DNA of 64,000 nt, taken from Gammaproteobacteria bacterium (GTDB taxonomy: Bacteria > Pseudomonadota > Gammaproteobacteria > Francisellales > CACEW01). How positions within the stretch are numbered: position 1 is the first letter of the stretch; the number at the start of each line of letters is the position of its first letter. Of this stretch, positions 16,191 through 56,712 are shown piece after piece. The position numbers were made by a program, and so were the translations under genes. Below the pieces are notes generated by a model. It saw only the letters and a program-made list of their open reading frames with translations, made no database searches and was not told the DNA's origin. The stretch lies in contig JAGVKT010000036.1 of NCBI GenBank assembly GCA_020050355.1, forward strand, positions 130,669 through 194,668, written 5' to 3'.

Positions 16191-16259
16191 ATTTTTTATT
16201 CTCTGAAGGTGTGTTATTATCACAGATTTACTAGAAAGGCGCAAATAGTGCCCATACAC

Positions 16260-17510: not shown

Positions 17511-17515
17511 GAATT

Positions 17516-18406
17516 ATGAAAAAATATCTACCGAGCATACTTTATGTCATTATCACCGCAGCATCTGTATTATTAATTCACTTTGCCAATGCAAACATAG
17601 CTCCACTATGGCTCCTATTATTTAGCACCACACTTGCTACCATTTATTTTCACAGCGTTAACATCCACGCTTTAAAAAATATGTATCGCTTGGCATGGAT
17701 AGATAAATCACGCTGGTTGCTGGTCATGATCTTGGTTGCCTTAATATGGCTAACTACTTTTTATGGCTCAAGCATTAGCCCCAGTATTTTTATGGTACTT
17801 TATTTTTCTGTAGCTGCCTTTCTAGGACTAGTCACAACCATAAGGCAACAGCAAGAAAAAAAATACTCCTTATTGATCGTAGGCCTAGGAATGCTATTAA
17901 CAGTAAGTTTTATTATAGTAATCATGCTGAATCAGACATTCAAACTTGCCCCCAAAACAACATTACTCTTATTGATGTATGGAGTCATTGGTGGCGTTAC
18001 CAGTTTTTTATATATGCGGCAAAGTTACCTCTTTTCAAAAAAAACTACTCTTAAACCTACACAAATATTAGCCGTACGCTTTTGGCTACTCATCGGAATA
18101 TGCATACTTTTAGCTCCCATGCACGAAGTAAGACCTAGCTTACTAAATATATGGAACATAATTATAATTGTGATGGTCTCTATCATTTCTTTAATTTTAC
18201 CGCTTTATTTCAATCAGAAAGGGATTATCGAAGCAGGCCCAGAAATAAATGCAATTATTGGGGGCTATACTCCTGCATTAACATATCTTCTTGCAGTTAT
18301 TTGCATGTTACAGCCTTTTCATCTAGATTTATTCCTCCTTTACTGCTTAGTTGCTTTTTTTATTGGCTGGCCTTTTTTAAAAAAAATGCATTCAACTCAT
18401 AGATGA
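17516..18406 (+). CDS. Polytopic membrane protein (~10 TM), DMT/EamA-like permease by topology only
   Basis: 296 aa from ATG 17516. It starts 6 nt after the ATP-grasp stop. No diagnostic motif was recognised. Confidence 0.45.
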   Translation: MKKYLPSILYVIITAASVLLIHFANANIAPLWLLLFSTTLATIYFHSVNIHALKNMYRLAWIDKSRWLLVMILVALIWLTTFYGSSISPSIFMVLYFSVAAFLGLVTTIRQQQEKKYSLLIVGLGMLLTVSFIIVIMLNQTFKLAPKTTLLLLMYGVIGGVTSFLYMRQSYLFSKKTTLKPTQILAVRFWLLIGICILLAPMHEVRPSLLNIWNIIIIVMVSIISLILPLYFNQKGIIEAGPEINAIIGGYTPALTYLLAVICMLQPFHLDLFLLYCLVAFFIGWPFLKKMHSTHR

Positions 18407-18458
18407 CCAGAAAAACCCCTTGTGTTATCTTAGTGAAGTTTAAAGCTCTAGTACTCAA

Positions 18459-19553
18459 ATGAAAAAATTACAAAATTATTTTGCACGTGAAGTAATGCAC
18501 ACGATGTTGCTCATGATGCTCATATTCCTTGGCATTATGATTTGCATTGTTTTCATTCGTTATTTGTCTATGGCCGCATCAGGAGAAATGTCTCTTAAAA
18601 ATGCTATTGCCATGCTGGGCATTATCATGCCTAATTTTATTAATTTATTAATTCCCATTACTTTATTCCTTTCATTGATCATTACCATTAATCGACTTTT
18701 ATATGACAGCGAATTAGTAACTGCGTTTGCCTGTGGCGTAGGTTGGTTTGATTTAGTGAAATGGCTATATCTACCAGGGTTTTTACTTGCACTACTAAAT
18801 GTAATATTGAGTTTTTGGGTCGTACCCAAAATGGCTTACTATCAAGATAACCTTTTACAAATTTCTTCACAGAATGCCAGCATGGCAAGTTTTTTAGAAA
18901 CAGGGCGCTTTTTTTATACCGGTACCGACAATCAGGTCATCTACGTGGGCGCTGTTAATTTTAAAACTGGAGTATCACAACAAATATTTATTTATCGTAA
19001 AATCGGTAATGTGACCGAATTAATTCTTGCACCTCAAGGACAAATCACTGAGCAAGATAAATTATCCCAATTAACATTACTAAATGGCCATGAATACCAA
19101 GGCGTCCTTGGAACGCTAGCATATCAAATGGTACATTTTGGTAGTTTTAATTTATTGATGATACCCACTTACAACACCGATTATACTGACAAAAGCACCT
19201 TTCCTGTCCCTGACTTAATTAGAGACCATGGCCCAGGCAGTAAATTAGAATTAGAATGGCGCAGCTCAACGCCTTTAATGACCTTAGTCTTAACCGTATT
19301 AGGTGTAATGTTAAGCGATGTACGTCCACGCAAAAGCAAATATATTTATTTTTTAGCAGGGACAGCTATTTTCATTATTTACTTTAATGGCCTTTCAATC
19401 GCGCGCTCAATGGTCATTACGCATGCATTACCTATGCTTCCTGGGTTATATCTCGTCCATGGTATTTTTTTTGGAATAGCCTTATTTTTATTAGCAAAAC
19501 GAGAAGTTTTTTTTAGTTCTTTATTTACTTCAAAGCGACGAGAAATAAAATGA
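18459..19553 (+). CDS. lptF: LPS export ABC permease LptF
   Basis: 364 aa, YjgP/YjgQ-family architecture (3 TM, periplasmic beta-jellyroll, 3 TM). Overlaps lptG by 4 nt. Confidence 0.88.
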   Translation: MKKLQNYFAREVMHTMLLMMLIFLGIMICIVFIRYLSMAASGEMSLKNAIAMLGIIMPNFINLLIPITLFLSLIITINRLLYDSELVTAFACGVGWFDLVKWLYLPGFLLALLNVILSFWVVPKMAYYQDNLLQISSQNASMASFLETGRFFYTGTDNQVIYVGAVNFKTGVSQQIFIYRKIGNVTELILAPQGQITEQDKLSQLTLLNGHEYQGVLGTLAYQMVHFGSFNLLMIPTYNTDYTDKSTFPVPDLIRDHGPGSKLELEWRSSTPLMTLVLTVLGVMLSDVRPRKSKYIYFLAGTAIFIIYFNGLSIARSMVITHALPMLPGLYLVHGIFFGIALFLLAKREVFFSSLFTSKRREIK

Positions 19554-20614
19554 AAATTTTTTGGTATATCGCACGCCATGTTTTATTGACTATTGCTTTA
19601 GTTCTATTAGTTGTCGTTGCTATTGATTTTGCTTTTGCTGTAATCGCAGAAATTAAATCTATCGGCACGAACACTCAAAACTATTCTTGGAGAGATGCCA
19701 TTATTTATGTGCTATTGCGCTTACCCTCTGACATCTACCTTATTTTTCCCATCGCGGCTTTTTTAGGAAGCTTAATTAGCTTAATGATATTTTCATTGCG
19801 TAGTGAGCTAATAGTCATGCGCGCAGCAGGGGTATCTATTTTTCAACTCGCTCAGGCCTTACTATTAAGCACAGGGATATTATTAATTATTTATTATTCC
19901 CTGAGCTTATTTATTGCACCCTATACCCGTTACAAGGCGACCATTGAAGATAACATTTTTCAAAATAACCAAGACATCTTAATCTTAGCAAAACAAACTT
20001 GGCTAAGATCAGGCGACCATTTTTTATTACTAGGAACAGTATTACCTGATGGTAATATTCAAAATGTTACCGACTTTCAATTACATAACGGAGTCTTACA
20101 AACTATACGTCAAATAGAAGGGATTCACTTAAATACAGATAACACGTGGACCCTCCAACACATAGAGGTGACATCGCTTACAGATAAAGGTGCAAGCAAA
20201 ACTTACAATGATATCCTCACAGAGCCAAGCTTGATCGCACCAAAATTATTAGCAGTAATTACCATGCAACCGGATGAAATGGATATTGTGACCTTGCACC
20301 ATTACATCCAATATCGTAAGCAAAATAATTTAGATATCAAATCTTACGTCTTACAATTTTGGAATAGGATTTTTGAGCCCTTGATGTTGCCCATTATGAT
20401 TTTAATTGCCATTCCATTTGTTTTAGGCAGCCATCGCTCTAGAATTCACTTAAAAATTTTTATAGGCTTAGCATTAGGCTTTTCTTTTTATATTGTTGGA
20501 CAATTCTTTGGATCTTTGACCTTACTCACCGCACTACCAGCATTTTGGGGGGCTTTATTACCAGCCCTGATCTTTGGTAGTATTTTAGCAGTACTCCTAT
20601 GGATTTTATCCTAA
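19550..20614 (+). CDS. lptG: LPS export ABC permease LptG
   Basis: 354 aa and paralogous to the preceding ORF, giving the typical lptFG pair. Confidence 0.88.
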   Translation: MKIFWYIARHVLLTIALVLLVVVAIDFAFAVIAEIKSIGTNTQNYSWRDAIIYVLLRLPSDIYLIFPIAAFLGSLISLMIFSLRSELIVMRAAGVSIFQLAQALLLSTGILLIIYYSLSLFIAPYTRYKATIEDNIFQNNQDILILAKQTWLRSGDHFLLLGTVLPDGNIQNVTDFQLHNGVLQTIRQIEGIHLNTDNTWTLQHIEVTSLTDKGASKTYNDILTEPSLIAPKLLAVITMQPDEMDIVTLHHYIQYRKQNNLDIKSYVLQFWNRIFEPLMLPIMILIAIPFVLGSHRSRIHLKIFIGLALGFSFYIVGQFFGSLTLLTALPAFWGALLPALIFGSILAVLLWILS

Positions 20615-25643: not shown

Positions 25644-26390
25644 ATGTCGATAGATATTACGCGAGCTTCTTTAAAAAATCATCCGCTTTTTACTAGGCGA
25701 GAATTTATGCAAAGTTTTTTAACGACATTAAAAAATTTTGGTTTTACTTATTTTTGTTATCATCGCGTACTTGATGCACATCAAAGAATTATTTTGAGCA
25801 GCAAACCTGAGGTTTCAGAATTATTTATTAACAAAAAACTATATAAACTAGCCTTACATGCGTCGCCAGAATCTTATTCCAGCGGTATTTTTTTACATGA
25901 TTTTTTAAATACCCAAGAGATTAAGCATGCACTCAGCACTTTTAATCTTAATAGCGGGGTTATTTTAGTAAAAAAGCAAGTAAATTTTCTTGAGTTCTTT
26001 TTTTGGTATGCGCCTAAAAGTACTGTAGCGTTAAATCATTTTATCATTAATAATATTGATTTATTTGAGGCGTGGATACAAGAGTTTAGAGGGCGTGCAC
26101 AGCCTATACTAAAACAGTATCAAAAAAATCCTTTATTTTATCCGCGAGGCGTTGAGACTATTGGGTTAAATCAACCCCTAAAACAACGCCCGCATTTTGA
26201 ATATTTATTGAGCCCACGTGAGCGAGAAATTTTCTATCTTATTAAAATGGGTTTAAGCAGTAAAAAAATGGCGCTGCAATTAAATATTTCTAATCGAACA
26301 GTTGATAAACATATTGAAAATATGTTTGTTAAAACCAATTGTAATTCTCGGATTGAATTGCTTCAAAAAATTAATTTTATTATTTTATAA
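25644..26390 (+). CDS. LuxR-family transcriptional regulator (solo; the N-terminal domain may be autoinducer-binding-like)
   Basis: 248 aa. The C-terminal HTH reads LSPREREIFYLIKMGLSSKKMALQLNISNRTVDKHIENMFVKTNCNSRIELL. No luxI-type gene is in the window. Confidence 0.8.
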   Translation: MSIDITRASLKNHPLFTRREFMQSFLTTLKNFGFTYFCYHRVLDAHQRIILSSKPEVSELFINKKLYKLALHASPESYSSGIFLHDFLNTQEIKHALSTFNLNSGVILVKKQVNFLEFFFWYAPKSTVALNHFIINNIDLFEAWIQEFRGRAQPILKQYQKNPLFYPRGVETIGLNQPLKQRPHFEYLLSPREREIFYLIKMGLSSKKMALQLNISNRTVDKHIENMFVKTNCNSRIELLQKINFIIL

Positions 26391-26466: not shown

Positions 26467-27714
26467 ATGTACATAGGATATAATTTAGGTGAAAAATTAA
26501 CCGTTGTCAGTGCTGGCAAGCTTAGGCCAGAATTTGCTGTTCCTGTGTCTGAGATAAAAGCATCGTTATTAAGTACTAAAACCAATTCTAAAATGGGTAC
26601 TTTCTTGATTCATTATATGGATACTGATACTGGCCCTAGTATTCATACAATTTGGGTGGCCATTTCTGGTTCGGGTAATAAGCATAAAAGTGATGAGTGT
26701 GCTAGAAGATTAACAAGGCTTTCTTATGCTCGTTTTGTGCCCTATGTGGTTGAAGGTGCTCTTCTTGAGACTAGCAAACCTTCAGGAGTGGATTTTATTT
26801 CTGCTCGTGAACAGCTTAATCGAGAGAACTTATTTAAGCGCTTTTTAATTTTTATTACTAATGCTTTTCAAGCGGATGGCTCATCTTATGATGCCACTGT
26901 TATTAAAGAAGTTTTTCATCTTAAGGAATGCTTAATAGACTCTGTACGTTTTATAAAAGCGTTTTTGCGGTCTGAAGCGTTTAAAGCAGAATACTTACGT
27001 TTTTTAACAAATCCAGCTGAAAAAGATTATTATCGTTTCTATCCTACGCCAGTACATTTTTTATTAATGCTTGCTTGGGAATGCTATCTTCTTGATCGTC
27101 ATGTTCAAGAATCCAAAAAAAGCTTTAGTGCTCATGGGGGATTTATAAAATTTATTGATACTGTGACTGGGTTTGAGGTTGACGATATAAATTACCGAAA
27201 GATGAAAACTTATATCCAAGCACTAGAGCTCGAGAGAGATGATCAACTTTACAAATCATTCGAAGCCTTATGGCAGCATATGAATCAGTTCAAGCTTGAG
27301 CAGTTAACTAGAAAAATGCAACATTGTGCTGAAACCAATCTCATCGAATACTTGCAAACAAAAGAAGGTCGAAAGATTTTAGGAAGGCCAGGTAAATTTT
27401 ATTTATTTAGTTCTATCATAGGTGATGACACAAATGAAATAGTACTTTTATGTGATAATTGTCGTTTATCTGTTTTACCAAAAATAAAAGAGTTAAATAT
27501 TGCTGCTGGGGATTCACCTAAAACAATGTATACCGCGCAGGTGCCTGTTATATCTGCATCTTTTCCGACCCTACCACTCGCTCTGCTTCCTGTTGAAGAG
27601 CTATGTGATCTAAGACCTCCGTTAAAACGTGATGAGCTTGCGACTGCTATGACGCTTTATGAAGTTTTATGTACTCATGCTGATGGAGAATCATTAATAG
27701 ATTACATGGCTTAA
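26467..27714 (+). CDS. Hypothetical protein, orphan (415 aa)
   Basis: A long ORF with codon usage like its neighbours and a TATAAT box upstream. No family was recognised. Contains HCAE (aa 286-289) and CDNC (aa 329-332). Confidence 0.6.
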   Translation: MYIGYNLGEKLTVVSAGKLRPEFAVPVSEIKASLLSTKTNSKMGTFLIHYMDTDTGPSIHTIWVAISGSGNKHKSDECARRLTRLSYARFVPYVVEGALLETSKPSGVDFISAREQLNRENLFKRFLIFITNAFQADGSSYDATVIKEVFHLKECLIDSVRFIKAFLRSEAFKAEYLRFLTNPAEKDYYRFYPTPVHFLLMLAWECYLLDRHVQESKKSFSAHGGFIKFIDTVTGFEVDDINYRKMKTYIQALELERDDQLYKSFEALWQHMNQFKLEQLTRKMQHCAETNLIEYLQTKEGRKILGRPGKFYLFSSIIGDDTNEIVLLCDNCRLSVLPKIKELNIAAGDSPKTMYTAQVPVISASFPTLPLALLPVEELCDLRPPLKRDELATAMTLYEVLCTHADGESLIDYMA

Positions 27715-39569: not shown

Positions 39570-40052
39570 TTATTTTTTCTTTTGCTTTTCTGGTAATACT
39601 GAAGAGTGGTGTTCAATAATAAGCCACTGATCATTTTCTTTTAAATACACAAAAGTAAAGCGGGCGGGCACTTCAATCGTATGGTGATGGGGTCCGAGAT
39701 AACTAAAAGTATAAAGTCCAGAATTAACTGCAACCGTATCATTAGCATAGACCCGTGGATGTTCTTGATCAAAAATAACCTGTAGTTGTGGTTTTGCGGT
39801 TAACTTCACAAAATAATTATAAAGATTTTGTGGCGTAGTGATCTCATTCACAAAGGTTGGGTAAAAATAAGCATTGTTATCATAAAGTGCTACAATTGCC
39901 TTGGGGTTGCGCGCATCAATTGCTTGTTGCCAATTCTCGCTGGCATTGAGCACATTTTGTTGTTCAGGCGTATACGCGGCTGTTGGTGTTACTGCAAAAA
40001 CAAAAGAGAAATTAGCAAAAAGACTGGCTGCTAATAATAATTTTTTAATCAT
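39570..40052 (-). CDS. Secreted NTF2-like (DUF4440/SnoaL-like) protein
   Basis: 160 aa. Signal peptide MIKKLLLAASLFANFSFVFA, then an alpha+beta cone-like pattern ending WLIIEHHSS. Its start overlaps the ribE stop (ATGA). Confidence 0.5.
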   Translation of the reverse strand: MIKKLLLAASLFANFSFVFAVTPTAAYTPEQQNVLNASENWQQAIDARNPKAIVALYDNNAYFYPTFVNEITTPQNLYNYFVKLTAKPQLQVIFDQEHPRVYANDTVAVNSGLYTFSYLGPHHHTIEVPARFTFVYLKENDQWLIIEHHSSVLPEKQKKK

Positions 40053-40645
40053 GATTGCTCCTGTTTGATAAAGTTTTTGAGATATTTTGCCAACATATCA
40101 ACTTCAAGATTAACAAATGTTCCTACCCGATAATATTGCGCGATAGTGGCCTGCAGTGTATGCGGAATCAAGGTCACTCGGAATATTGATGCTACGATAT
40201 CAATGATGGTGATGCTCATTCCGTCAATGGCGATAAAACCTTTATTGATCAAATAAGGTCGCAAATTTTCAGAGAAACGAATGCTGACCAACCAGGCACT
40301 GTCCTCAAGAGTAATATCAACAATCTCACCCAAGGCATCAACATGCCCTTGCAATAAATGGCCGCCAATACGTTGTTGTAAAGTCATGGCGCGTTCAAGA
40401 TTAACTAAAGAGTTTTCTGTGAGCATGCTAAAATTAGTACAGCGTAAAGTTTCGGCAACGACTTCAACGTAAAATCCTTCTGAATTGAATTCAGTCACTG
40501 TTAGACAAGTACCATTGATGGCAATGCTATCACCTATTTTAAGATCGCTTAATACGGTTACACAACCAACAAAAATTTTTAATCCCATTAAAGTTTTAAC
40601 CAAGGCTTTAATGACACCAATCTCTTCAACTATGCCAGTAAACAT
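40049..40645 (-). CDS. ribE: Riboflavin synthase (alpha chain)
   Basis: 198 aa. MFTGIVEEIG ... GDSIAINGTCLTV, with the duplicated barrel (IDGMSITI). Confidence 0.9.
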   Translation of the reverse strand: MFTGIVEEIGVIKALVKTLMGLKIFVGCVTVLSDLKIGDSIAINGTCLTVTEFNSEGFYVEVVAETLRCTNFSMLTENSLVNLERAMTLQQRIGGHLLQGHVDALGEIVDITLEDSAWLVSIRFSENLRPYLINKGFIAIDGMSITIIDIVASIFRVTLIPHTLQATIAQYYRVGTFVNLEVDMLAKYLKNFIKQEQS

Positions 40646-40656
40646 AAAAAGTCCTA

Positions 40657-41706
40657 CTATAAATAAGATTTAATTTTAATATCAGTACCAAGAGTTTTGC
40701 TATTTAAAGGTTTTAATGAAATTTTTTGAGGTAAATTTCCAATGAACCAAGGCGTGAGATAGCAGGTAATTTCTTGTACTACTTTAAGGCTAAAGAATTC
40801 TTGTAATGTAGCTCTACCTCCTTCTACTAACAAACTTATAATTTCACGTTGACCTAATAAATTCAACAACGCTATGAGATCAATTTTGTTATTGTGCAAG
40901 GGTAGAGGAATAATTTCTGTGGTTGTAGTGCTAAATTTTTTTTGAGCGCTTTTAAAAAATTCTTCAGCACATACTAGCCACGTTTTATCGGGCAATGCGC
41001 CATTGAAAAGTTTGAGTGTTGCATCTAAATCAGCTTGCGTGTTTAAAACGATGCGTTGCGGTTGACGAGCGATAGGGGCGATGTAACGTACAGTCAATGA
41101 TGGATTATCAAGGCGTGCAGTATGGCTTCCGATTAAAATTGCTTGTGAGGTTTGTCTCAATTCATGCGCATCTTGTTGACTTAAGGAGTTTGAGAGTTGC
41201 CGTTCATTTGTGTCAGGTGTTGCTATTTGTCCATCTAAAGACATCGCCCATTTTGCGATCACATAAGGTTTGCGTGTAGTAATGAAATGAAAAAATGCAC
41301 GATTTAAATGTAGTGCTTCTTCAGCTAATATGCCCAGTGTTACTTCAATGTTCGCAGCTTGTAATGTGGCAATTCCTTGACCTGAAACTAAAGGATTGGG
41401 ATCTTCTATTGCAATGATTACCTTTTTAATGCCTGCTTTTATGATGGCGTCTACGCAAGGAGGGGTGCGGCCATGATGACAGCATGGTTCTAAGTTGGTA
41501 TAAAGGCTAGCACCATGGGCTTGAGTACCTGCTGCTGTTAATGCATGGATTTCTGCATGAGGCTCACCTGAGCACTCATGAAAGCCTTGTCCTACGATCA
41601 TATTATCTTTTACTATTACGCATCCGACCATAGGATTAGGCAGGCTGAGATAACGCCCTTGGTATGCTAATTCTAAACATAAGCGCATATAGCCAATATC
41701 AGACAT
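40657..41706 (-). CDS. ribD: Bifunctional diaminohydroxyphosphoribosylaminopyrimidine deaminase / 5-amino-6-(5-phosphoribosylamino)uracil reductase
   Basis: 349 aa. Deaminase motif HAEIHAL ... PCCHHGRTPPC, then a reductase domain. Confidence 0.92.
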   Translation of the reverse strand: MSDIGYMRLCLELAYQGRYLSLPNPMVGCVIVKDNMIVGQGFHECSGEPHAEIHALTAAGTQAHGASLYTNLEPCCHHGRTPPCVDAIIKAGIKKVIIAIEDPNPLVSGQGIATLQAANIEVTLGILAEEALHLNRAFFHFITTRKPYVIAKWAMSLDGQIATPDTNERQLSNSLSQQDAHELRQTSQAILIGSHTARLDNPSLTVRYIAPIARQPQRIVLNTQADLDATLKLFNGALPDKTWLVCAEEFFKSAQKKFSTTTTEIIPLPLHNNKIDLIALLNLLGQREIISLLVEGGRATLQEFFSLKVVQEITCYLTPWFIGNLPQKISLKPLNSKTLGTDIKIKSYL

Positions 41707-42313
41707 GATGCAACTTCCTATAATTAACTAAGTCACGAATGGTTCCAATTTTTAATTGATGTTTTTTAGCAATTTTTACTAAGTCATCACGACGAGCCAT
41801 GGTGCCATCAGCATTAAGAATTTCAATTAGTACTGCGACTGGATAAAAGCCTGCAAGCCTCACAAAGTCAACAGCTGCTTCTGTGTGTCCTGGACGAGTT
41901 AAAACGCCACCTTCCTTAGCTACAATAGGAAATATATGCCCTGGAGAAACAATATCATTAACGGTTGCCTCTGCCTTTGAAGCAGTTAAAATCGTATGCG
42001 CGCGCTCAAAAGCTGAAATTCCGGTAGTTACACCATGACTGGCTTCGATAGACCAAGAAAAATTACACGGAAAAGCGCGTTCACCACGTACTGGCATTAA
42101 AGGAAGTTCTAAACGTTTTGCGTGTGCAGGTGTTATCGGCATGCATAATAAACCACGACCGTGTTGTAAAACAAAATTAATTTTTTGTGGTGTTACTTTT
42201 TCCGCTGCCATAAAGAAATCACCTTCATTTTCGCGATTTTCATCATCCATTACGATAATAATTTCACCGGCTTTGATTGCGGCGATTAGTTCTTCTGTAG
42301 TATTACTTTGCAT
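41699..42313 (-). CDS. ribB: 3,4-dihydroxy-2-butanone-4-phosphate synthase (monofunctional, no GTP cyclohydrolase II domain)
   Basis: 204 aa. Contains [11 protein letters not shown], and HTEAAVD. Confidence 0.9.
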
Positions 42314-44907: not shown

Positions 44908-44925
44908 CCTATTGCTTTTGATCTT

Positions 44926-47900
44926 TCAGGTTGTGGGGTGGTAAGTATACCTGAAAGGTGACACCCCACCGTCAGCGTCAGAGGCTGCTATAGAGCCTCC
45001 TCTTGTCACTGCCGCAAGGAAAGCATCAGCAAGATCTGCTCTAGGAGTTCCTCCTCCAAGCCCACTACTGACACTGCTAATAGCGGATGGTAAGTTGGGT
45101 AATAAACCACTATACATACTGCCTAAGGGACTAGAAGCTGGAATAACAGCACCGGATATAGGATTATTGCCATTAGAAACAGGTTCAAATCCTCTTGGTG
45201 TACTGCCAGTAGTGTGAACTTGAACTGTTTCAAAATCATCCTCTGCTGCACCATAAGCATCATTTCTTATTAGTGAATCGCTAGCGTCAACCATACCTAT
45301 TAAAGGATTTGTTCTTTGAAAAAAACCAGCTTGTATGAAAATATATAAGCTTACACCTAAAGCGGCCACTGCTGTGCTTCCAAAGGTTAACATTAATATT
45401 AAGAATGGTAATACAATATTTGCATATGTATTTCTTTCTGCCGAACCTGGAGTAGCTGCATCCAATCTAGTTTTATAAATACTAAAGGCTGTTGTTGCAC
45501 CTCCGGTGAGCAAGCATAGTATAGTATTTAAAGAGAAAAAATATTTACCGTAAGGTGAATTGTATCTCATTGCTATTGCAAGAGATTCTTTTAGGATAAA
45601 AAAACTTCTGTTACGATAGAGTGTGCTTACTACTGCAGCAATGCCTAGCAAGCCACAAACCACATAAAAAGCCACTATAAGACCATATTTAAATGGTGGA
45701 TCGCCTGGCTCAGTAATTACAAAATAAGGGACATAACCCAAACCTGCTAAAATGGCTAGAATCAATATTGATAAAAAAACAGATTGCGTTCTCTCTTGGC
45801 AACGTTCTTTAGCACTATAATATCTACGTAAGCGATTCCAAGCAGCGGCTTCGTATATGCGTGCATAATGGCGATAGGTATTTCTATCTAAGGCGGGCCC
45901 ACTACCAATAAGATATTCATCCCAAAATTTATTAGCATCGGCATTATGTCTTGCAAGGTAAGCACATAAGACGAATGCTTGTTGTTTAGGAGTAAGCAAT
46001 GATGCCAAATGGGGAGTTATAGCTTCTGCCAAATGATCAACCAACTGTCCCTGTGCACCACAAAAAGGTAGGTCTGATATTGTTCTTGCTTTGGGTTTGT
46101 AGTTTTCATAAAGCACTTTTCTTATTGAGCTTGGAAGTCCTAAAATATTTGGAATTTTTGGTTCGAGTGTGCGTGTAATAACGTATCTACCTGCGCTTTC
46201 TTCCATATTGAATAATCTCATCAATAGGCCAATTTTTTCAGCAGATGCTAAAGATGTTCCTGTAGTTTTCTTATAACTTTCTTCAGCATTTTTTCTGTGT
46301 TCTTGCGTTGAAATTAAAGGCAAATCCAAAAGTATTTCTAAGATTTTTGATAAGCAAACCATTAATCTCGGATTTGCCAACAAACATGTTATGCTATCGT
46401 CAGAGCTTTGCGCTGGAAGCGCCGTTTCAATCGGTGAAAACGGAGACCACTTTCCATCAAGTAAAATCTTTAAATAAGTTTTTCTGAGGTTTTTTCGTTC
46501 TGTTGAAAAAATATTCTCTGGAAATAAAAAATGACTTACTACAAAAAATTTTAAACGAGCTAAAATATTTTCTTTGGTTTTTTTATTTAAAATATAGATG
46601 GTGTTTTGTTCTGGTAATAAATAAGTTTTAAGCAGCGTAGATAAAGGCCACAAAATCGTGGATTTAAAAACTTCATTTTGAACAAGATTCAAAAAATTTA
46701 CTAAAATAAAAAACAATCTTGGATAATAAGGGTCATCTTCTAATTTTTCTGAAGAAAACAATGGAGAAGTGTGATCTTCAGTAGGAAATGATCTGAAAAT
46801 ATTTCCATCCTCAAAATGTGCTGCTGCGTTTCCGCCTTCTATTAATATTTGTGTGAGGATGCTTGTACGATAATCCTCAGAGGTATTGATAATAAAAGCA
46901 CAAAAATTTTTAAATTTATCTGCTGTAATGAATTTCATCATATTTGAGATGGATGGTAATGGTGGAATAGATAAAATGCTATTAACAGGTGGAACGGAGC
47001 GTACTCGGCTCGCCCCTGCGCCAGCTCCAGCTCCAGCAAACACTGGAGAAAATGTGCTACTGGCTTCTCGATAAGGAAGTAACAAGCGTACATCTATTCG
47101 CAGCTCATTGGCAGGATTTGTGTCTGTGCCTGGCAGAGGAGAGGCAGTTATTCTATCGCCCATGGTTTTTTGCGCTAATTCTAAAAATGCACCTAAAGAT
47201 GTTTTTTCAGAGGCTTGTGAATACCATTCTTCTGGAGCTTCTAAATATGGGTTTATGCCGTCAATAATTGTTGATGAACTTTGTAGATGTATAAGCGCGG
47301 CCTCTAAAGCAATTAAACTACAAGGGCCATCGATGTGAATATAATTTTTTAAAAATGTGCTAACATTTTTTTGGGTTCTTGGTGTATACCAACCTAATAA
47401 CTTACCTAATATAGATGCGGTTCGTTTATCGGTAAAATTTGGAAGGGCGCTATTTATTAAAAGGTCATCAGTTTCAGTTGAGTGATCATCGGTTGGCGGA
47501 GAAATAGAGCAAAGTAGCAAGGCTTCAAATAATCTCGCTACAAATAAAGAATGAGGGGCTGAAATTCTTTCAAAGCTGGGGATCCAGTAAGCATGAGCTT
47601 TTGTTAGAAAGGCTTCAATTTTTAGCTGTCTGTCAGTGAGTCCTTCATCTAATAAAAAAGTATATTTGTGTACTTGATCGTCATAGTACGCACCGGAAGC
47701 GAGAAAGAGAGCATCAATAAAGTTCACTGCTGCAACATAATCAAAATCCTGCCCTGTTTTAGCGCAAATTTTATTTATTAACACAGCAACTCTTCTAGAA
47801 AAAGCTTCTGTAACAGATGCTGTATTCAATTTCCAAAAAATAAATAAACATGAAAGGCTGGTTACGTAATTAACGAATGCTGGGAATATTTTTTTGGGCA

Positions 47901-48123
47901 AACTTTGTTTACTAGTGTCTATTGTAGTAGTAAAAAAACTCAACCATTCATCAGTTATAGCTGCTGTAGGACTTATAAATGTAAATTTTTTCTCGATTTC
48001 TAGCCATAAGCGTCGTAAAGAAGTTTCATCAAGCTCTAAACTACTTTGCAAACTAAGGTAGGCTCTAAGGGTTGTTTGTAAGTCTTGATAAGAGGTAGCA
48101 GAAAAACGTTGAACAGCAAGCAT
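44926..48123 (-). CDS. Large orphan protein (1065 aa): soluble helical N-terminal ~770 aa, a cluster of ~5 TM helices, and a Gly/Ser/Pro-rich tail
   Basis: An uninterrupted 3.2 kb ORF. TM segments include VFLSILILAILAGLGYVPYFVI, GLIVAFYVVCGLLGIAAVVSTLY and ANIVLPFLILMLTFGSTAVAALGVSLYIFI. No family was recognised. Confidence 0.7.
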   Translation of the reverse strand: MLAVQRFSATSYQDLQTTLRAYLSLQSSLELDETSLRRLWLEIEKKFTFISPTAAITDEWLSFFTTTIDTSKQSLPKKIFPAFVNYVTSLSCLFIFWKLNTASVTEAFSRRVAVLINKICAKTGQDFDYVAAVNFIDALFLASGAYYDDQVHKYTFLLDEGLTDRQLKIEAFLTKAHAYWIPSFERISAPHSLFVARLFEALLLCSISPPTDDHSTETDDLLINSALPNFTDKRTASILGKLLGWYTPRTQKNVSTFLKNYIHIDGPCSLIALEAALIHLQSSSTIIDGINPYLEAPEEWYSQASEKTSLGAFLELAQKTMGDRITASPLPGTDTNPANELRIDVRLLLPYREASSTFSPVFAGAGAGAGASRVRSVPPVNSILSIPPLPSISNMMKFITADKFKNFCAFIINTSEDYRTSILTQILIEGGNAAAHFEDGNIFRSFPTEDHTSPLFSSEKLEDDPYYPRLFFILVNFLNLVQNEVFKSTILWPLSTLLKTYLLPEQNTIYILNKKTKENILARLKFFVVSHFLFPENIFSTERKNLRKTYLKILLDGKWSPFSPIETALPAQSSDDSITCLLANPRLMVCLSKILEILLDLPLISTQEHRKNAEESYKKTTGTSLASAEKIGLLMRLFNMEESAGRYVITRTLEPKIPNILGLPSSIRKVLYENYKPKARTISDLPFCGAQGQLVDHLAEAITPHLASLLTPKQQAFVLCAYLARHNADANKFWDEYLIGSGPALDRNTYRHYARIYEAAAWNRLRRYYSAKERCQERTQSVFLSILILAILAGLGYVPYFVITEPGDPPFKYGLIVAFYVVCGLLGIAAVVSTLYRNRSFFILKESLAIAMRYNSPYGKYFFSLNTILCLLTGGATTAFSIYKTRLDAATPGSAERNTYANIVLPFLILMLTFGSTAVAALGVSLYIFIQAGFFQRTNPLIGMVDASDSLIRNDAYGAAEDDFETVQVHTTGSTPRGFEPVSNGNNPISGAVIPASSPLGSMYSGLLPNLPSAISSVSSGLGGGTPRADLADAFLAAVTRGGSIAASDADGGVSPFRYTYHPTT

Positions 48124-48226
48124 AGCAATTAATATATTAGTTAAAACGACAACAATATAGCATGATTGAAAAAAAATTATTGTTCAAACATTGATTGTAC
48201 TGTTCAAATAAGGTTCTAAAATAAAT

Positions 48227-48270
48227 CTGCCAGGCTAGCTTCTTACGAAGGCAATACCTGGCAGGTTTTT
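48227..48270 (-). terminator. Hairpin downstream of the small peptide gene, with U-tracts on both strands
   Basis: CTGCCAGG (48227-48234) pairs with CCTGGCAG (48257-48264), with an inner CTTC/GAAG stem. It is flanked by ATTTATTTT on the minus strand and GTTTTTATT on the plus strand. Confidence 0.5.
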
Positions 48271-48309
48271 ATTCCTATTTTTGTTTAGGAATTGGAGATT
48301 CTTCAGGTT

Positions 48310-48438
48310 TTAGCAGGCGCCTGGAGCACAATTAATGGCTACTGTCTGTTGTTCAGCAGGATAAGCTTGAACAATGTTAGCACTAATTGTAAACGCCAAG
48401 GCGGAGTAGACCATAAGAAGAAGTAGGAGTTTTTTCAT
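48310..48438 (-). CDS. Small secreted peptide precursor (42 aa; predicted mature 17-mer YPAEQQTVAINCAPGAC)
   Basis: Hand-translated: MKKLLLLLMVYSALAFTISANIVQA/YPAEQQTVAINCAPGAC*. A GGAGA RBS lies 6-7 nt upstream. It has a consensus-like promoter and a downstream hairpin. It is below the track's size cut-off. Confidence 0.6.
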   Translation of the reverse strand: MKKLLLLLMVYSALAFTISANIVQAYPAEQQTVAINCAPGAC

Positions 48439-48469
48439 TTTTATTCTCCACTCACCTTCCTACATTTTT

Positions 48470-48498
48470 AGTATATTCTTATGCTCTAGGAATGTCAA
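48470..48498 (-). promoter_or_regulatory. Candidate sigma70 promoter of the small peptide gene
   Basis: The minus strand reads TTGACA (48498-48493), 17 nt spacer, TATACT (48475-48470). Confidence 0.5.
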
Positions 48499-48726
48499 GA
48501 AAATGACCATAAAAAAGGCTGAACTAAGGCCTTAAAATTTGAGAATTATTAATGAGTTAAATTGAAACTAAAAGATCATGAAAAAGACCATATTTTTGTT
48601 CTTAAAATATACTGAATATACTCATGCTTCAAAACACTGGAATTTTAACAAATAGTTTTGTTGGCTAATAAATCTTCTTTGATTTGCAATAGACCAGCTA
48701 TTTCTCACCTAAATGAGTATATGAGG

Positions 48727-50365: not shown

Positions 50366-51028
50366 TTAAGTGCTTTTTCTAGTAACAATATTATGAGCAA
50401 TAACAGCGCTAGGATAAGCAATTATTAACGCAAATATAATTTTAAAAGACATAGAGACGCTCATCATTATAAGGATTTTGTTAAAAGGAACTTTACCTAC
50501 AAAAGTAAATAAATATACCAAAATAACATAGGCAATTTCTCCTGAAAGCGTTGAGATAATGCTTCGGATAATAAAAAAACGTCCATGATAGAGGTTTTTT
50601 AATTTGTTCATTAAATTGATATTTAAAATAGCGCCGATGATTAGGGCAAAAACATTGCTTACAAAAATACGCGGAAGTTCAGCTAAAATTATTTTGTAGC
50701 TATTTGCAGTTAATATTATATCTGAGGGCGAAGGAAGATGACTCATAAGTGCCAAACCGCCATCAGAAAAAAATTCTGCTCCGAGCGCTACAAAAATGAG
50801 TCGCAGCGCTACGTGCCGACCATAAGCTTCAGTGACGATATCACTGATGGCATAAGTCAGTGGAAAAACAAATAAAGAAGCGGAGGCTACTAAGCCAGAA
50901 AAATTTATTAATTTGTAAGTAACAATATCAGCCATAATAATGGCGGTAACATAAAATATTCCTAAGTAGAGTAATGGCAAATAAAAATAAATGGGATCTT
51001 CTTTTAAGGTAAAAGGTTTTTCTACCAT
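50366..51028 (-). CDS. yhhQ: Queuosine-precursor transporter (YhhQ/VUT, DUF165 family)
   Basis: 220 aa from ATG 51028. FPLTYAISDIVTEAYGRHVA matches the VUT-family signature (FP..f...D...E.YG). Confidence 0.78.
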   Translation of the reverse strand: MVEKPFTLKEDPIYFYLPLLYLGIFYVTAIIMADIVTYKLINFSGLVASASLFVFPLTYAISDIVTEAYGRHVALRLIFVALGAEFFSDGGLALMSHLPSPSDIILTANSYKIILAELPRIFVSNVFALIIGAILNINLMNKLKNLYHGRFFIIRSIISTLSGEIAYVILVYLFTFVGKVPFNKILIMMSVSMSFKIIFALIIAYPSAVIAHNIVTRKST

Positions 51029-51032
51029 TGAA

Positions 51033-51431
51033 TTATTCCAGCATGATACAAACTGCATTGAAAGCATTTAAAGCATAGGCAATAGCTCTTGGAGGAATTT
51101 GCTCAGGTTCAATGCCAGGGCCTAAGATAGCTGTGCCGATGGGCTTCATAAATTCTAGTTGTAAATTAATGATGGCCTGAATTACTGCTTGTCCCATAAC
51201 TAAGCCATGTTGAGTTTCGCCTTTTTCGATAATGCCCAAAACCACTACAGCATCGATTTCTTTTTGGAGTAAAAGTCGTTTGATTGCCAAGGGCTTTTCC
51301 ATCGACCCAGGGACTGGAACTTCTGTGGCAATTTTTATTTTTTTTGTGAGCGCAGCAGCACGAACAGCTTCAAGCATTTGCAAAGCATAGTCTTGATGGT
51401 ACGTGCCGTAAATGATTGCAATATTTTTCAT
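51033..51431 (-). CDS. Lumazine-synthase (DMRL synthase) family protein, short and divergent
   Basis: 132 aa. It aligns by eye to E. coli lumazine synthase: VPVPGSMEKPLAIKRLL..EIDAVVVLGIIEKGETQHG vs VWVPGAYELPLAAGALA..KYDAVVALGTVIRGGTAHF. The N-terminal RFN segment is not conserved. Confidence 0.55.
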   Translation of the reverse strand: MKNIAIIYGTYHQDYALQMLEAVRAAALTKKIKIATEVPVPGSMEKPLAIKRLLLQKEIDAVVVLGIIEKGETQHGLVMGQAVIQAIINLQLEFMKPIGTAILGPGIEPEQIPPRAIAYALNAFNAVCIMLE

Positions 51432-53433: not shown

Positions 53434-54054
53434 ATGAAAAAGATCATAATTGCAACCACACTTGCTATAGGCTGCGCTTCAGCTTTTGCTGTCACCGCTC
53501 AATCAGGTATATATGTAGGTGGTTTAGGCGGTTGGTCATTTGCTGATAGCCCAACAACTGGACAAATGGTAGCAACCAGCAAAGATAACCATAACTATAC
53601 TTTAGGTGGTACAGTTGGTTACAACTATGCTATTAATCAAAACTGGTTAACAGGTTTTGAAGTAAGCTATTTGAATTTTGGAGAAACCAAATATAACGCA
53701 TCTTATGGTAACACCAATTTAAAAAATTACGGTGTTCAATTAATGGCTACTGGCACTTATCTCATGGCTAACGGCTTTAACGTTTTTGCTAAAGCTGGTG
53801 CTATAGATCAAACCATGACTTCTAGCAATAATATGTATGCGCTCAATAGCAACAATGGTAATACCAAAATTACTAAATGGTTGCCTGCAGCTGCGGCTGG
53901 TGTTGGTTATATGCCAACTCAAAACCTCAATATTGCATTACAATATGAGCGTACTTTTGGTACCAATTGGGATAACAATAATTTAAGTGCTACCCCAAAA
54001 CCAATGACCCAAAATGCAGTAACTTTAGGCGTTACTTATACTTTCCCATTGTAA
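53434..54054 (+). CDS. Outer-membrane beta-barrel protein (OMP_b-brl/opacity-like), paralogue 1
   Basis: 206 aa. Signal peptide MKKIIIATTLAIGCASAFA, alternating amphipathic strands, and the C-terminal VTLGVTYTFPL. Confidence 0.8.
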   Translation: MKKIIIATTLAIGCASAFAVTAQSGIYVGGLGGWSFADSPTTGQMVATSKDNHNYTLGGTVGYNYAINQNWLTGFEVSYLNFGETKYNASYGNTNLKNYGVQLMATGTYLMANGFNVFAKAGAIDQTMTSSNNMYALNSNNGNTKITKWLPAAAAGVGYMPTQNLNIALQYERTFGTNWDNNNLSATPKPMTQNAVTLGVTYTFPL

Positions 54055-54382: not shown

Positions 54383-55021
54383 ATGAAAAAACTTCTAATC
54401 GCTAGTGCAATTACACTCGCATTATCTTCAACCTCTGCTTTTGCAGTAAGTCAACAATCAGGTGTATATGGCACCGTGTTAGGGGGCTGGTCATTTGCTT
54501 CAGCGCCAAATGCAACGAATGCAGGGTCAACGAGTACTTCTAATAAAAATTATACCTGGGGTGGTAATTTAGGATATCAATATGCTTTTAATCAAAATTG
54601 GGCGGCAGCGCTTGAAATAGGTTATGTAAGCTTTGGAAAAACTGAATATAACGGTACTAACTCTGGTAAAATTCAAAATACTGGCGCGCAAGCAATGCTA
54701 GTAGGCTCCTATATGATGAACAATGGTTTTAATGGTTTTGTAAAAGCAGGTGGTATGAATGCATACAGTAAAGCAAGTCCGTTTCCTGGTGGACCAAGCG
54801 TTGCTTTGAATAATGGAAACACACAGATAGCAAAATGGATTCCTGTTGTAGCTGCTGGTGTTGGTTATATGCCAATGCAAAATTTAAACGTAGCATTGCA
54901 ATATGAACACACTTTTGGTTCTAACTGGAATGTTGCTGGCTCAAACGACAACCTCAGCAAGCCAATGACCCAAAATGCAGTGACTTTAAACCTGACTTAT
55001 CTTATTCCTTTAAGTTTCTAA
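54383..55021 (+). CDS. Outer-membrane beta-barrel protein, paralogue 2
   Basis: 212 aa and collinear with the upstream paralogue (GGWSFA, NYT.GG..GY.YA.NQNW, AAGVGYMP.QNLN.ALQYE.TFG.NW, PMTQNAVTL). Confidence 0.8.
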   Translation: MKKLLIASAITLALSSTSAFAVSQQSGVYGTVLGGWSFASAPNATNAGSTSTSNKNYTWGGNLGYQYAFNQNWAAALEIGYVSFGKTEYNGTNSGKIQNTGAQAMLVGSYMMNNGFNGFVKAGGMNAYSKASPFPGGPSVALNNGNTQIAKWIPVVAAGVGYMPMQNLNVALQYEHTFGSNWNVAGSNDNLSKPMTQNAVTLNLTYLIPLSF

Positions 55022-55426: not shown

Positions 55427-55823
55427 AATCTACTTACCTAAAAATTTAGTAAATTTTCAAATTATTATTTTCATTAGCGCCCTACTCGCTTTTTTATTGT
55501 GGAAGGCATCTATTTTTTATCGTGTTAGTGCAATTGCTTTATTTTCAGTAATCAGCGGGGTGTATTATTATTTTTATTTTAAAAGAAATTACTTAAAAAA
55601 ATATCCTTTTGTATTATTTCTTAAGCAAGGGAATTGGTATTTAAATAGTGAACAAGTAAGCGTTCAAAGGACCAGTATCTTAACAACGTATTATGCGCTA
55701 ATACATTTAAAAAATGTAACTAAAAGTTATTATTTTCTGGTTACGCCTTCTAGTTTTGGGAAGCAAGAGGAAAGTTATTATCAGCTTATTCGCCATTTAA
55801 GAATACATCAAGCGTCTTTTTAA
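55413..55823 (+). CDS. ygfX: YgfX/CptA-like inner-membrane protein (DUF1434)
   Basis: About 136 aa from ATG 55413 (or 55407). It has two N-terminal TM helices and then a soluble tail. It overlaps the sdhE stop, as in the E. coli sdhE-ygfX operon. The start choice is uncertain. Confidence 0.55.
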   Translation: MQKFEIYLPKNLVNFQIIIFISALLAFLLWKASIFYRVSAIALFSVISGVYYYFYFKRNYLKKYPFVLFLKQGNWYLNSEQVSVQRTSILTTYYALIHLKNVTKSYYFLVTPSSFGKQEESYYQLIRHLRIHQASF

Positions 55824-56712
55824 GGTTATAAGCTAAGTCTTTATCAAGAAGTAATTTTAATGGTTTACGCTTTCCTTCTAAATAAAGCCACCATTGATCT
55901 TTTTTTAATTCATCTTTTTTAATTCGATGATAACTACCATCGGTTAAACTATTTTTGGAAATGCCGTTTTTCTGCGCCCGAAAGCCTTGTAATAAGCCGC
56001 GGAAATTGCCCACAAAGTCTTGCTCTTGAAAAATTCTCAGTGCCTCAGCAGCGCGTTTAGGATGTTCTTGTTCTAATTGTCTCAGCTCATGAAGTGTACG
56101 TAAATCTGTAATTTTGCCGCTTTGTAATAGATCGCGGATGGCATCGCTTCCCTCAAGTAATCCCAAACGCATAGATACCCAGGCAGAATCACGTCCTAAT
56201 TCTTTAGCAATTTGTTTTTTGCTTAACCCCATTTCTTCAATTAAACGATCAATAGCATGGGCCTCTTCTAAAGGAGGAACTTGCTCTCGTTGATCATTTT
56301 CTAATAACTGCAAAATTAACGTATTTGCATCTTCTTCTTCACGAATGATGCAAGGTAATACGGTTAGGCCCGCAATTTTTGCAGCATGGTAGCGCCGCTC
56401 ACCTACGATGATTTGATAGGCGCCTTGCTTATTTCGAGGTTTGACGATGAGAGGTTGTAACACGCCCTTTTCTCGAATGCTGTCAGCAAGGTTTTCTAGG
56501 TTAATAAATTGTTTGCGCGGTTGTTGAGGGTCAGGATTTAATAAAACAAGCGGCAGGTCAAAAAGTTTACCGTTGGCAACTGCAACTTCATTCATGGCTT
56601 TGAGCCTTAAGCTCATCAGCTCATCTTTTTTTTCCAAGCCAATCTGTTCAACTTCTTGACTGAATTCACTGGTGCGACGGCGATTGTGTAGTAGTACTTT
56701 TTTTAAAGTCAT
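55786..56712 (-). CDS. parB: ParB/Spo0J-family partition protein
   Basis: 308 aa. Contains the ParB N-terminal box IVGERRYHAAKIAG and the HTH GLSKKQIAKELGRDSAWVSMRL. Confidence 0.85.
   Translation of the reverse strand: MTLKKVLLHNRRRTSEFSQEVEQIGLEKKDELMSLRLKAMNEVAVANGKLFDLPLVLLNPDPQQPRKQFINLENLADSIREKGVLQPLIVKPRNKQGAYQIIVGERRYHAAKIAGLTVLPCIIREEEDANTLILQLLENDQREQVPPLEEAHAIDRLIEEMGLSKKQIAKELGRDSAWVSMRLGLLEGSDAIRDLLQSGKITDLRTLHELRQLEQEHPKRAAEALRIFQEQDFVGNFRGLLQGFRAQKNGISKNSLTDGSYHRIKKDELKKDQWWLYLEGKRKPLKLLLDKDLAYNLKKTLDVFLNGE

Follow-up and report, generated by a model that had tools for sequence, protein, structure and literature searches.

Small envelope proteins can modulate large membrane proteins, as MgrB does by acting on PhoQ, and KdpF, CydX, and MgtR are further examples. 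In Firmicutes, the Phr-Rap and PapR-PlcR systems pair Sec-exported pre-pro signalling peptides with dedicated receptors, which are helical, soluble tetratricopeptide repeat (TPR) proteins that bind the peptide after its re-import. The transmembrane domain (TMD)-effectors of Legionella (e.g., SidF) are reported to have both termini on the cytoplasmic side (N-in/C-in topology), periplasmic loops of <30 residues, and a cytoplasmic C-terminal tail, and 81% of the predicted ones have one or two transmembrane segments (TMS), which is a tendency and not an absolute rule (PMC11602083). In this study, we analysed a 64-kb stretch of DNA from a Gammaproteobacteria bacterium (contig JAGVKT010000036.1, positions 130,669 to 194,668; hereafter the window), in which the gene at 44926-48123 on the reverse strand encodes a protein of 1065 aa, designated P0001. 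An original prediction, made from the letters of the window, had described this protein as an orphan with C-terminal membrane helices and a disordered tail, and had likened its layout to that of vacuole or inclusion-membrane proteins of intracellular bacteria. We found that P0001 and one distant homologue form a new protein family, and that the large gene is preceded in both known loci by a short gene for a peptide ending in a CxPGxC motif.

Results

The open reading frame (ORF) at 44926-48123 is a real gene. It starts with ATG, and a 3.2-kb open frame in DNA of ~37% G+C is not a chance event. Its G+C content by codon position is 0.44/0.43/0.24, the third-position value (GC3) lying within the range of the neighbouring genes, and its relative synonymous codon usage (RSCU) correlates with that of the pooled neighbours at 0.71, compared with 0.65-0.93 for clearly real neighbours. 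As had been predicted, it is the largest complete gene of the window, the runner-up ORF having 630 aa, and its product has no recognizable domain. Over its whole length P0001 gave no match at E<=0.01 in Pfam or NCBIfam, its sub-regions gave a best value of only E = 0.14 in Pfam at a cutoff of E<=10, and no credible match was found in PADLOC, PHROGs, or the PDB sequence profile search; homology to a characterized family, which the prediction had proposed to check, was thus not detected in any of these collections. A tblastn search against plasmids and phages gave no match either, and hhalign comparisons among six sub-regions of P0001 found no internal duplication.

An exhaustive phmmer search of 1.84 billion cluster representatives returned one relative, P0002 (849 aa, E = 8.6e-12, 25% identity), which is encoded on a 20.4-kb assembled contig (ERR3200794_119498; L008/L009) of 39.5% G+C that is unrelated to the contig of the window. 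P0001 is therefore not an orphan in the strict sense, as one distant full-length homologue does exist. The two sequences align colinearly from a shared start position through the fourth transmembrane (TM) helix, and compared with composition-preserving shuffles their similarity reaches z 8.2 in the N-terminal region, z 17.8 in the central region, and z 22.5 in the TM region. The TM block of the alignment is nearly gap-free, and no other part of the protein is conserved as well. The predicted outer loops contain invariant polar residues, namely T804, E805, P806, D808, P809, K812, and Y813 in the first loop and E896, R897, and T899 in the second. Full-length colinearity, the motifs TEPxxDPxxKY and ERxTxxxIVLP, and the upstream CxPGxC peptide gene together define P0001 and P0002 as a family, a definition drawn from two members only. 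Both this family and its pairing with the peptide gene are new.

The family is extremely rare, with two members among ~15 billion predicted proteins. In a word-indexed search of 5.8 billion proteins, P0001 alone and an alignment of the family (A1) each recovered the query only, whereas a TM-only alignment (A2) returned nothing and missed even the query, so that its negative result is uninformative. Scans of genome contigs, metagenome contigs (twice), and viral contigs revealed no third member. P0001 is a singleton at 90% identity; however, so are the housekeeping proteins PyrD, TauE, and the MFS transporter of the same genome, and its orphan status is therefore partly explained by the lineage having been sampled a single time.

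The gene upstream of the large one lies on the same strand, separated from it by 186 nt in the window and by 126 nt in the P0002 locus. In the window it has 42 codons and encodes MKKLLLLLMVYSALAFTISANIVQAYPAEQQTVAINCAPGAC followed by a stop (48310-48438, reverse strand), and its counterpart is a 39-codon ORF that encodes MKKFIMLLLLTSVGFGITSAFSDNQDPTDPVSVCVPGDC followed by a stop (L008 3665-3784, forward strand). Both peptides have an MKK start, a hydrophobic core, an I/T-S-A site at residue 20, and C-x-P-G-x-C directly before the stop. Across all six reading frames of the 64-kb window, the C.PG.C-stop pattern is found a single time, and the fetched loci together likewise contain it a single time, in each case at this position. 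After the predicted cleavage, the mature peptide of the window would have 22 residues, and both mature peptides would be anionic (net -1 and -4) and free of K and R. Neither peptide matched a family in Pfam (E<=10) or NCBIfam (E<=1) beyond signal-peptide-level noise. The 42-codon gene is absent from the 15-billion-protein collection, in which the 39-codon counterpart was called. Therefore, no gene caller in the sources of that collection reported it, and the source record appears to lack an annotation for it. The two loci share only the large gene and the peptide gene, every other neighbour being different. The peptide gene and the large four-TM gene thus form a conserved two-gene module, which the original prediction missed.

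The signals around the two genes are likewise repeated. In the P0002 locus, the peptide gene has a promoter of the form TTGACA-16-TAAAAT and the Shine-Dalgarno (SD) sequence GGGAG, comparable to those of the window (Table 1), and a terminator-like element (CCCAC-loop-GUGGG + U6) likewise stands ahead of the large gene. In contrast to the peptide genes, the large genes have weak or no SD sequences, none being found before the ATG in the window. With a terminator between the two genes and no SD before the large one, the peptide is expected to be in excess over the large protein. Downstream of the TauE gene and just before the -35 element of the peptide promoter, a further hairpin with a T run (AAGGC-cttagttca-GCCTT-TTTTTAT; 48515-48545, reverse strand) probably serves as terminator of the TauE gene and lies at the border of the inserted segment.

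Hydropathy divides the membrane part of P0001 into two hairpins of four TM helices at residues 782-935 (nt 45319-45780). This agrees well with the predicted position of the cluster (about nt 45300-45800), but the earlier count of roughly five helices was too high. The last hydrophobic stretch spans 33 residues in P0001, and its counterpart in P0002 spans 27 residues followed by KK, which is too short for a hairpin; TM4 is therefore taken as one long helix. TM1, TM2, and TM4 have mean Kyte-Doolittle values of 2.2-2.6, typical for resident inner-membrane proteins. Six K/R residues cluster before TM1 and five between TM2 and TM3, marking the predicted cytoplasmic side, and by the positive-inside rule an N-in/C-in topology is therefore predicted. 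The N-terminal part of ~780 residues and the tail would then be cytoplasmic, and just two short loops would face outward. The second of these has ~19 residues, and its conserved sequence ERNTYANIVLP runs into TM4.

The central region carries the conserved motifs FC408, VNFLN475-479, LFPE533-536, CLxANP580-585, DLP600-602, and QQA714-716. A candidate CX5R phosphatase motif, CLLANPR at 580-586, was rejected, as it is not conserved and reads CLYANPN in P0002. AlphaFold2, which had been suggested as a check, was run with an alignment of only two sequences and gave a pLDDT of 33 for the full length and of 37 for residues 396-775. The statement that the cytoplasmic region is predominantly helical, which comes solely from DSSP assignments on these low-confidence models, is all that they support. 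The predicted layout of some 770 soluble residues ahead of the membrane helices thus holds, its helicity being subject to that limit, and because both models are too poor, the function of the protein is inferred.

In the alignment with P0002, neither the Ala-Gly linker (361-395) nor the greater part of the tail has a counterpart, and both are lineage-specific embellishments. The tail is indeed Gly/Ser/Pro-rich as predicted, with S, G, A, P, and T making up 13, 12, 12, 8, and 8% of residues 936-1065. The (Ala-Gly)4 run AGAGAGAGA occupies residues 363-371 (nt 47011-47037). The underlying microsatellite had been proposed as one that could vary in length; however, it comprises only 2.8 perfect copies of the 6-mer GCTGGA (47021-47037; Tandem Repeats Finder score 34, the usual threshold being 50), and the remainder of the run is encoded by different codons. 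As the array is short and impure, variation in the length of the run is unlikely, and P0002 lacks the linker altogether.

The module is a horizontally acquired, island-like unit. Its neighbours in the window are chromosomal housekeeping and biosynthesis genes (riboflavin genes, TerC, MFS sugar porter, TauE, PyrD, SucC, NadB, MurF, BioA, Pyk, and ParB). The closest available genome, an uncultured Thiotrichales metagenome-assembled genome (MAG) with a transporter of 86% identity, shows synteny on both sides and has a gene for a 298-aa FtsJ-like methyltransferase between the transporter and TauE genes instead of the module. The transporter-methyltransferase adjacency also occurs in three more distant gammaproteobacterial MAGs, and its presence in four related genomes indicates that it is ancestral. 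By this synteny, the lineage of the window exchanged ~0.9 kb for the 3.8-kb two-gene segment. No remnant of the methyltransferase gene was found in 44908-48726, nor were there meaningful flanking direct or inverted repeats, and hence there is no mobile-element signature. Codon usage points to an old acquisition or to a donor whose composition was similar. Genes for secretion systems were not found within the 64-kb window.

The surroundings in the Thiotrichales MAG also differ in other respects. Two TauE-family genes flank its transporter region (L001 8489-9268 and 12248-13087, both on the reverse strand), and an extra 133-aa ORF at 9335-9736, without a Pfam match, is absent from the window; the neighbourhood is therefore generally variable. 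On the P0002 contig, an 879-aa protein with an N-terminal Ala/Gly-rich stretch (L009 857-3496) and an 850-aa protein with a coiled-coil-like segment (16218-18770), both without a Pfam match, accompany a Fic-domain protein (19008-20150). The contig looks effector-rich, which suggests a host-associated bacterium. The 879-aa and 850-aa proteins were considered as paralogues of P0001 and P0002 and found to be unrelated, an 'ELDET' match at the N-terminus of the 850-aa protein being due to chance.

Elsewhere in the window, the cumulative GC skew has a minimum at ~24-26 kb and rises thereafter, as at an origin- or terminus-like switch. ParB is encoded at 55786-56712 (reverse strand), and no DnaA-box cluster was found in the window (18 one-mismatch sites, compared with 17 expected). 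Tandem genes for small OmpA-like or outer membrane protein (OMP) beta-barrel proteins of 206 and 212 aa lie at 53434-54054 and 54383-55021 (both forward). A 132-aa lumazine-synthase-like ORF (51033-51431, reverse), located apart from the riboflavin cluster at 40049-42313, overlaps the start of a queuosine-precursor transporter gene (50366-51067). A 272-aa ORF with a GTG start (438-1256, forward) has no Pfam match and an RSCU correlation of 0.34, compared with 0.65-0.93, and may be foreign or not a real gene. A second domain-less protein of the window, with 415 aa and no match in Pfam or NCBIfam, is encoded at 26467-27714 (forward) and adjoins a LuxR-type regulator gene (25644-26390).

Table 1. 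Features of the two-gene module and of the segment that contains it (window coordinates).
Feature	Position	Strand	Basis or remark
Large gene, P0001, 1065 aa	44926..48123	-	Founder of two-member family with P0002; ORF call, alignment, shuffle test
N-terminal cytoplasmic region, residues 1-360, predicted helical	47044..48123	-	Homologous to P0002 1-310; conserved C120, DAL137-139, H177; z 8.2
Ser/Ala/Pro/Gly linker, residues 361-395	46939..47043	-	Absent from P0002; holds (Ala-Gly)4 run
Central cytoplasmic region, residues 396-775, predicted helical	45799..46938	-	z 17.8 vs shuffles
Four predicted TM helices, two hairpins, residues 782-935	45319..45780	-	Kyte-Doolittle hydropathy; z 22.5
TM1, residues 782-804	45712-45780	-	Kyte-Doolittle
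Outer loop 1 (predicted), TEPGDPPFKY, 9 residues between TM1 and TM2, conserved	45685-45711	-	Alignment with P0002
TM2, residues 814-834	45622-45684	-	Kyte-Doolittle
TM3, residues 861-882	45478-45543	-	Kyte-Doolittle
TM4, residues 902-935, single long helix	45319-45420	-	Kyte-Doolittle
Gly/Ser/Ala/Pro-rich acidic tail, residues 936-1065, predicted disordered, cytoplasmic	44929..45318	-	Composition; mostly missing from P0002
Candidate extended -10 (TGcTATATT), 31 nt upstream of large gene ATG	48154..48162	-	Read by eye, outside promoter scan scoring
Intrinsic-terminator-like element between the two genes, 9-bp G+C-rich stem-loop then AUUUAUUUU	48218..48264	-	z -4.6
Peptide gene, 42 codons, MKKLLLLLMVYSALAFTISA then NIVQAYPAEQQTVAINCAPGAC then stop	48310..48438	-	ORF reading, six-frame motif scan, L008 counterpart
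CxPGxC loop of peptide	48313-48330	-	
Predicted signal peptide, 20 residues, Sec-type	48379-48438	-	
SD GGAG of peptide gene, 7 nt from ATG	48446-48449	-	
Near-consensus sigma-70 promoter of peptide gene, TTGACA-17-TATACT, 11/12	48470..48498	-	Best promoter-like site in 5-kb region scanned
Lineage-specific 3.8-kb segment between MFS sugar-transporter gene and TauE gene	44908..48726	.	Synteny; stands in place of FtsJ-like methyltransferase gene

Discussion

The observation behind the original prediction was confirmed with corrections, namely four TM helices, a weak microsatellite, and one distant homologue. Its description of the protein was essentially right, apart from the TM count, the orphan status, and the length-variable repeat, but it overlooked the two-gene module, and a plain membrane-anchored effector explains neither the pairing of the genes nor the conservation of the TM region. 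We tentatively favour a reading in which the exported peptide acts on its inner-membrane partner and the two form a functional pair. The large gene would give an inner-membrane protein with ~780 cytoplasmic helical residues, four TM helices in N-in/C-in orientation, and a disordered cytoplasmic tail. The peptide gene would be transcribed from its near-consensus promoter and translated from its strong SD, and the signal peptide would probably route the product through Sec, with cleavage after residue 20. In the periplasm, the C-terminal CxPGxC of the released peptide of ~22 residues could close into a six-residue disulfide ring. The peptide would be abundant and the large protein scarce. From the periplasmic side, the peptide may act on its partner at the outer loops, which are short and conserved, and this action would modulate whatever the cytoplasmic domain of the large protein does.

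Several points weigh against this proposal. Only two examples of the module are known, and co-variation is beyond reach. The predicted outer loops are very short (9 and ~19 residues), and the mature peptides have little in common past the CxPGxC motif. No recognizable output or enzymatic domain was found in the cytoplasmic region by searches of Pfam and NCBIfam, and both AlphaFold models, with pLDDT values of 33 and 37, are unusable. Given the terminator between them, the two genes may be neighbours without a shared function. Moreover, the architecture fits a translocated membrane effector too.

Such an effector, of which SidF or, loosely, the chlamydial Inc proteins would be the models, would be inserted into the bacterial inner membrane, then extracted and injected into the membrane of a host vacuole or organelle, for instance by a Dot/Icm-type type IVB secretion system (T4BSS), with its N-terminal domain and tail facing the host cytosol; the peptide gene would be unrelated or accessory. 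The large protein is lineage-restricted, free of known domains, and predicted to be helical, and its predicted N-in/C-in topology, periplasmic loops of <30 residues, and disordered cytoplasmic C-terminus match the TMD-effectors of Legionella (PMC11602083). The module was gained as an island, the P0002 contig also encodes the two large Pfam-less proteins of 879 and 850 aa and the Fic protein, and the nearest relatives are Thiotrichales- or Francisella-labelled MAGs, from lineages that include intracellular bacteria. However, this explanation leaves the conserved upstream gene for an exported peptide without a role, and it is the TM region and the outer-loop motifs that are most conserved, whereas pure anchors drift. 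The C-terminal tail, which would be expected to carry the translocation signal, is not conserved with P0002, the TM helices are highly hydrophobic, and their number is four, compared with one or two in 81% of the predicted Legionella TMD-effectors (PMC11602083). Furthermore, the housekeeping and biosynthetic genes of the 64-kb window include none for a secretion system. We therefore retain the predicted analogy with vacuole or inclusion-membrane proteins as a secondary hypothesis and regard it as less likely than the functional pair; the topology, the short loops, and the cytoplasmic tail fit it, but the conserved peptide gene and outer loops do not follow from it.

A role in competition or defence would also suit an accessory island of two genes that has taken the place of another gene at a conserved site in the chromosome. 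The peptide might be a Sec-exported bacteriocin-like toxin from which the large protein protects the producer, or the large protein might itself be an abortive-infection protein or toxin whose C-terminal four-TM domain permeabilizes membranes (VasX/colicin-like, or like four-TM defence effectors) and is restrained by the small protein. Pore-forming toxins use hydrophobic helical hairpins of the kind that P0001 carries, two in number, C-terminal to a large soluble part, and the strong independent expression of the small gene resembles that of immunity or structural bacteriocin genes. However, the anionic mature peptides without K or R (net -1 and -4) are unlike membrane-active bacteriocins, and an immunity protein of 1065 aa would be unprecedented. 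No match to a VasX or colicin pore-forming domain, or to any other entry, was found in Pfam or PADLOC, no VgrG, PAAR, adaptor, or phage genes occur near either locus, and no immunity-like TM gene is adjacent to the module in either of them. The small gene, in addition, lies upstream and not downstream of the putative toxin. We consider a role of this kind quite unlikely.

The order of small ORF, hairpin with U tract, and large gene in both loci would also suit a regulatory leader, the translation of which controls terminator read-through into the large gene, as in a leader-peptide attenuator or a SecM/VemP-like monitor. The conserved Pro-Gly-containing motif right before the stop is similar to the motifs that arrest peptides carry. 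However, the distance from the stop codon to the terminator stem, 45 nt in the window and 23 nt in L008, exceeds the footprint of a terminating ribosome, and no alternative anti-terminator pairing is evident. A chain of 39-42 residues would still be mostly within the ribosome tunnel at termination, so that Sec could not pull on its signal peptide. The Cys pair and the conservation of a signal-peptidase-type site speak for a product that is exported, and a leader function is highly improbable. That the large ORF is a non-functional or unexpressed remnant, whether an ORF that arose by chance or an acquired gene in decay, is scarcely credible, as the missing SD and the singleton status at 90% identity, which this genome's housekeeping genes share through sparse sampling, are outweighed by a 3.2-kb open frame in 37% G+C DNA, host-typical codon usage, and full-length colinearity with a 25%-identical protein from the same start position.

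In Gram-negative bacteria, little has been mapped of communication by peptides or of the control that small proteins exert on membrane proteins. If the exported peptide does act on its membrane partner, the module would offer a compact and transferable system of two genes, in which both the membrane domain and the cytoplasmic domain are new. A bolder version of the same proposal, which we think unlikely, is that of an unrecognized Gram-negative peptide system, in which a dedicated four-TM protein would detect, on its periplasmic side, a Sec-exported, disulfide-cyclized peptide made of a variable tail and a CxPGxC ring, and would provide a new signalling or enzymatic output through its cytoplasmic domain of 650-780 residues, the two forming a self-contained, horizontally mobile peptide-receptor pair unrelated to two-component, RNPP, and Agr systems. 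If the effector explanation were true instead, it would reveal effectors targeted to host membranes in a sparsely sampled Thiotrichales/Francisella-like lineage. With two members among ~15 billion predicted proteins, the broader importance of the family is limited until more are known. Nevertheless, the 1065-aa 'orphan' became interpretable only together with a 42-codon gene missing from the protein collection, a lesson that applies to other large orphans.

Comparison with known systems

Like the chlamydial Inc proteins, P0001 has bilobed hydrophobic units, each made of two TM helices and a short loop, of which it contains two. In contrast to the Inc proteins, for which an N-proximal hydrophobic domain and a type III secretion system (T3SS) signal are characteristic, these units are C-terminal, beginning at residue 782 of 1065, and not near the N-terminus, and the host is gammaproteobacterial and not a chlamydia, as judged from the neighbour genes and their relatives in Thiotrichales and Gammaproteobacteria MAGs. 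DUF5421, the sole chlamydial-family match to P0001, was dismissed, its E value of 0.31 being at chance level.

With the Dot/Icm TM effectors of Legionella, such as SidF and LegC3, P0001 shares its large size, lineage restriction, long soluble N-terminal part, and C-terminal TM hairpins. By hydropathy and the positive-inside rule, its predicted N-in/C-in topology and its loops of 9 and ~19 residues fall within the T4BSS-effector limit of periplasmic loops shorter than 30 aa, whereas its four TM helices exceed the low TM complexity expected of such effectors. T4BSS effectors are further characterized by a secretion signal in the C-terminal ~30 aa, by dependence on IcmSW, and by a T4BSS in the genome. 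It also differs from the Legionella effectors in having conserved outer loops, a conserved partner peptide gene, and an unconserved tail, and no sequence similarity to any of them was found in Pfam, NCBIfam, the PDB sequences, or the scan of 1.84 billion representatives.

The peptide can be compared with the pre-pro signalling peptides of Firmicutes and with MgrB, in both cases by analogy and not as a member. It resembles the peptides of the Phr-Rap and PapR-PlcR systems in that a precursor of ~40 residues appears to begin with a Sec signal, continue with a variable pro-region, and end in a short element that is conserved, and in that its gene stands beside that of a large, apparently helical protein. 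However, P0001 is predicted to be membrane-embedded, its host is Gram-negative, and no TPR or RNPP signature was found in it by Pfam. Unlike MgrB, the peptide matches neither the MgrB family nor another small-protein family in Pfam or NCBIfam, and its 17-residue hydrophobic segment with the I/T-S-A site looks like a cleavable signal peptide and not like a stable anchor; nor does P0001 belong to the histidine kinases, the transporters, or another known type of protein. With small envelope proteins such as MgrB, KdpF, CydX, and MgtR, the peptide shares a size of <50 residues, an MKK start with a hydrophobic segment ahead of a short, here predicted, periplasmic part, a Cys pair in that part as in MgrB, which both peptides of the new family have, and a gene beside that of a large, here predicted, inner-membrane protein.

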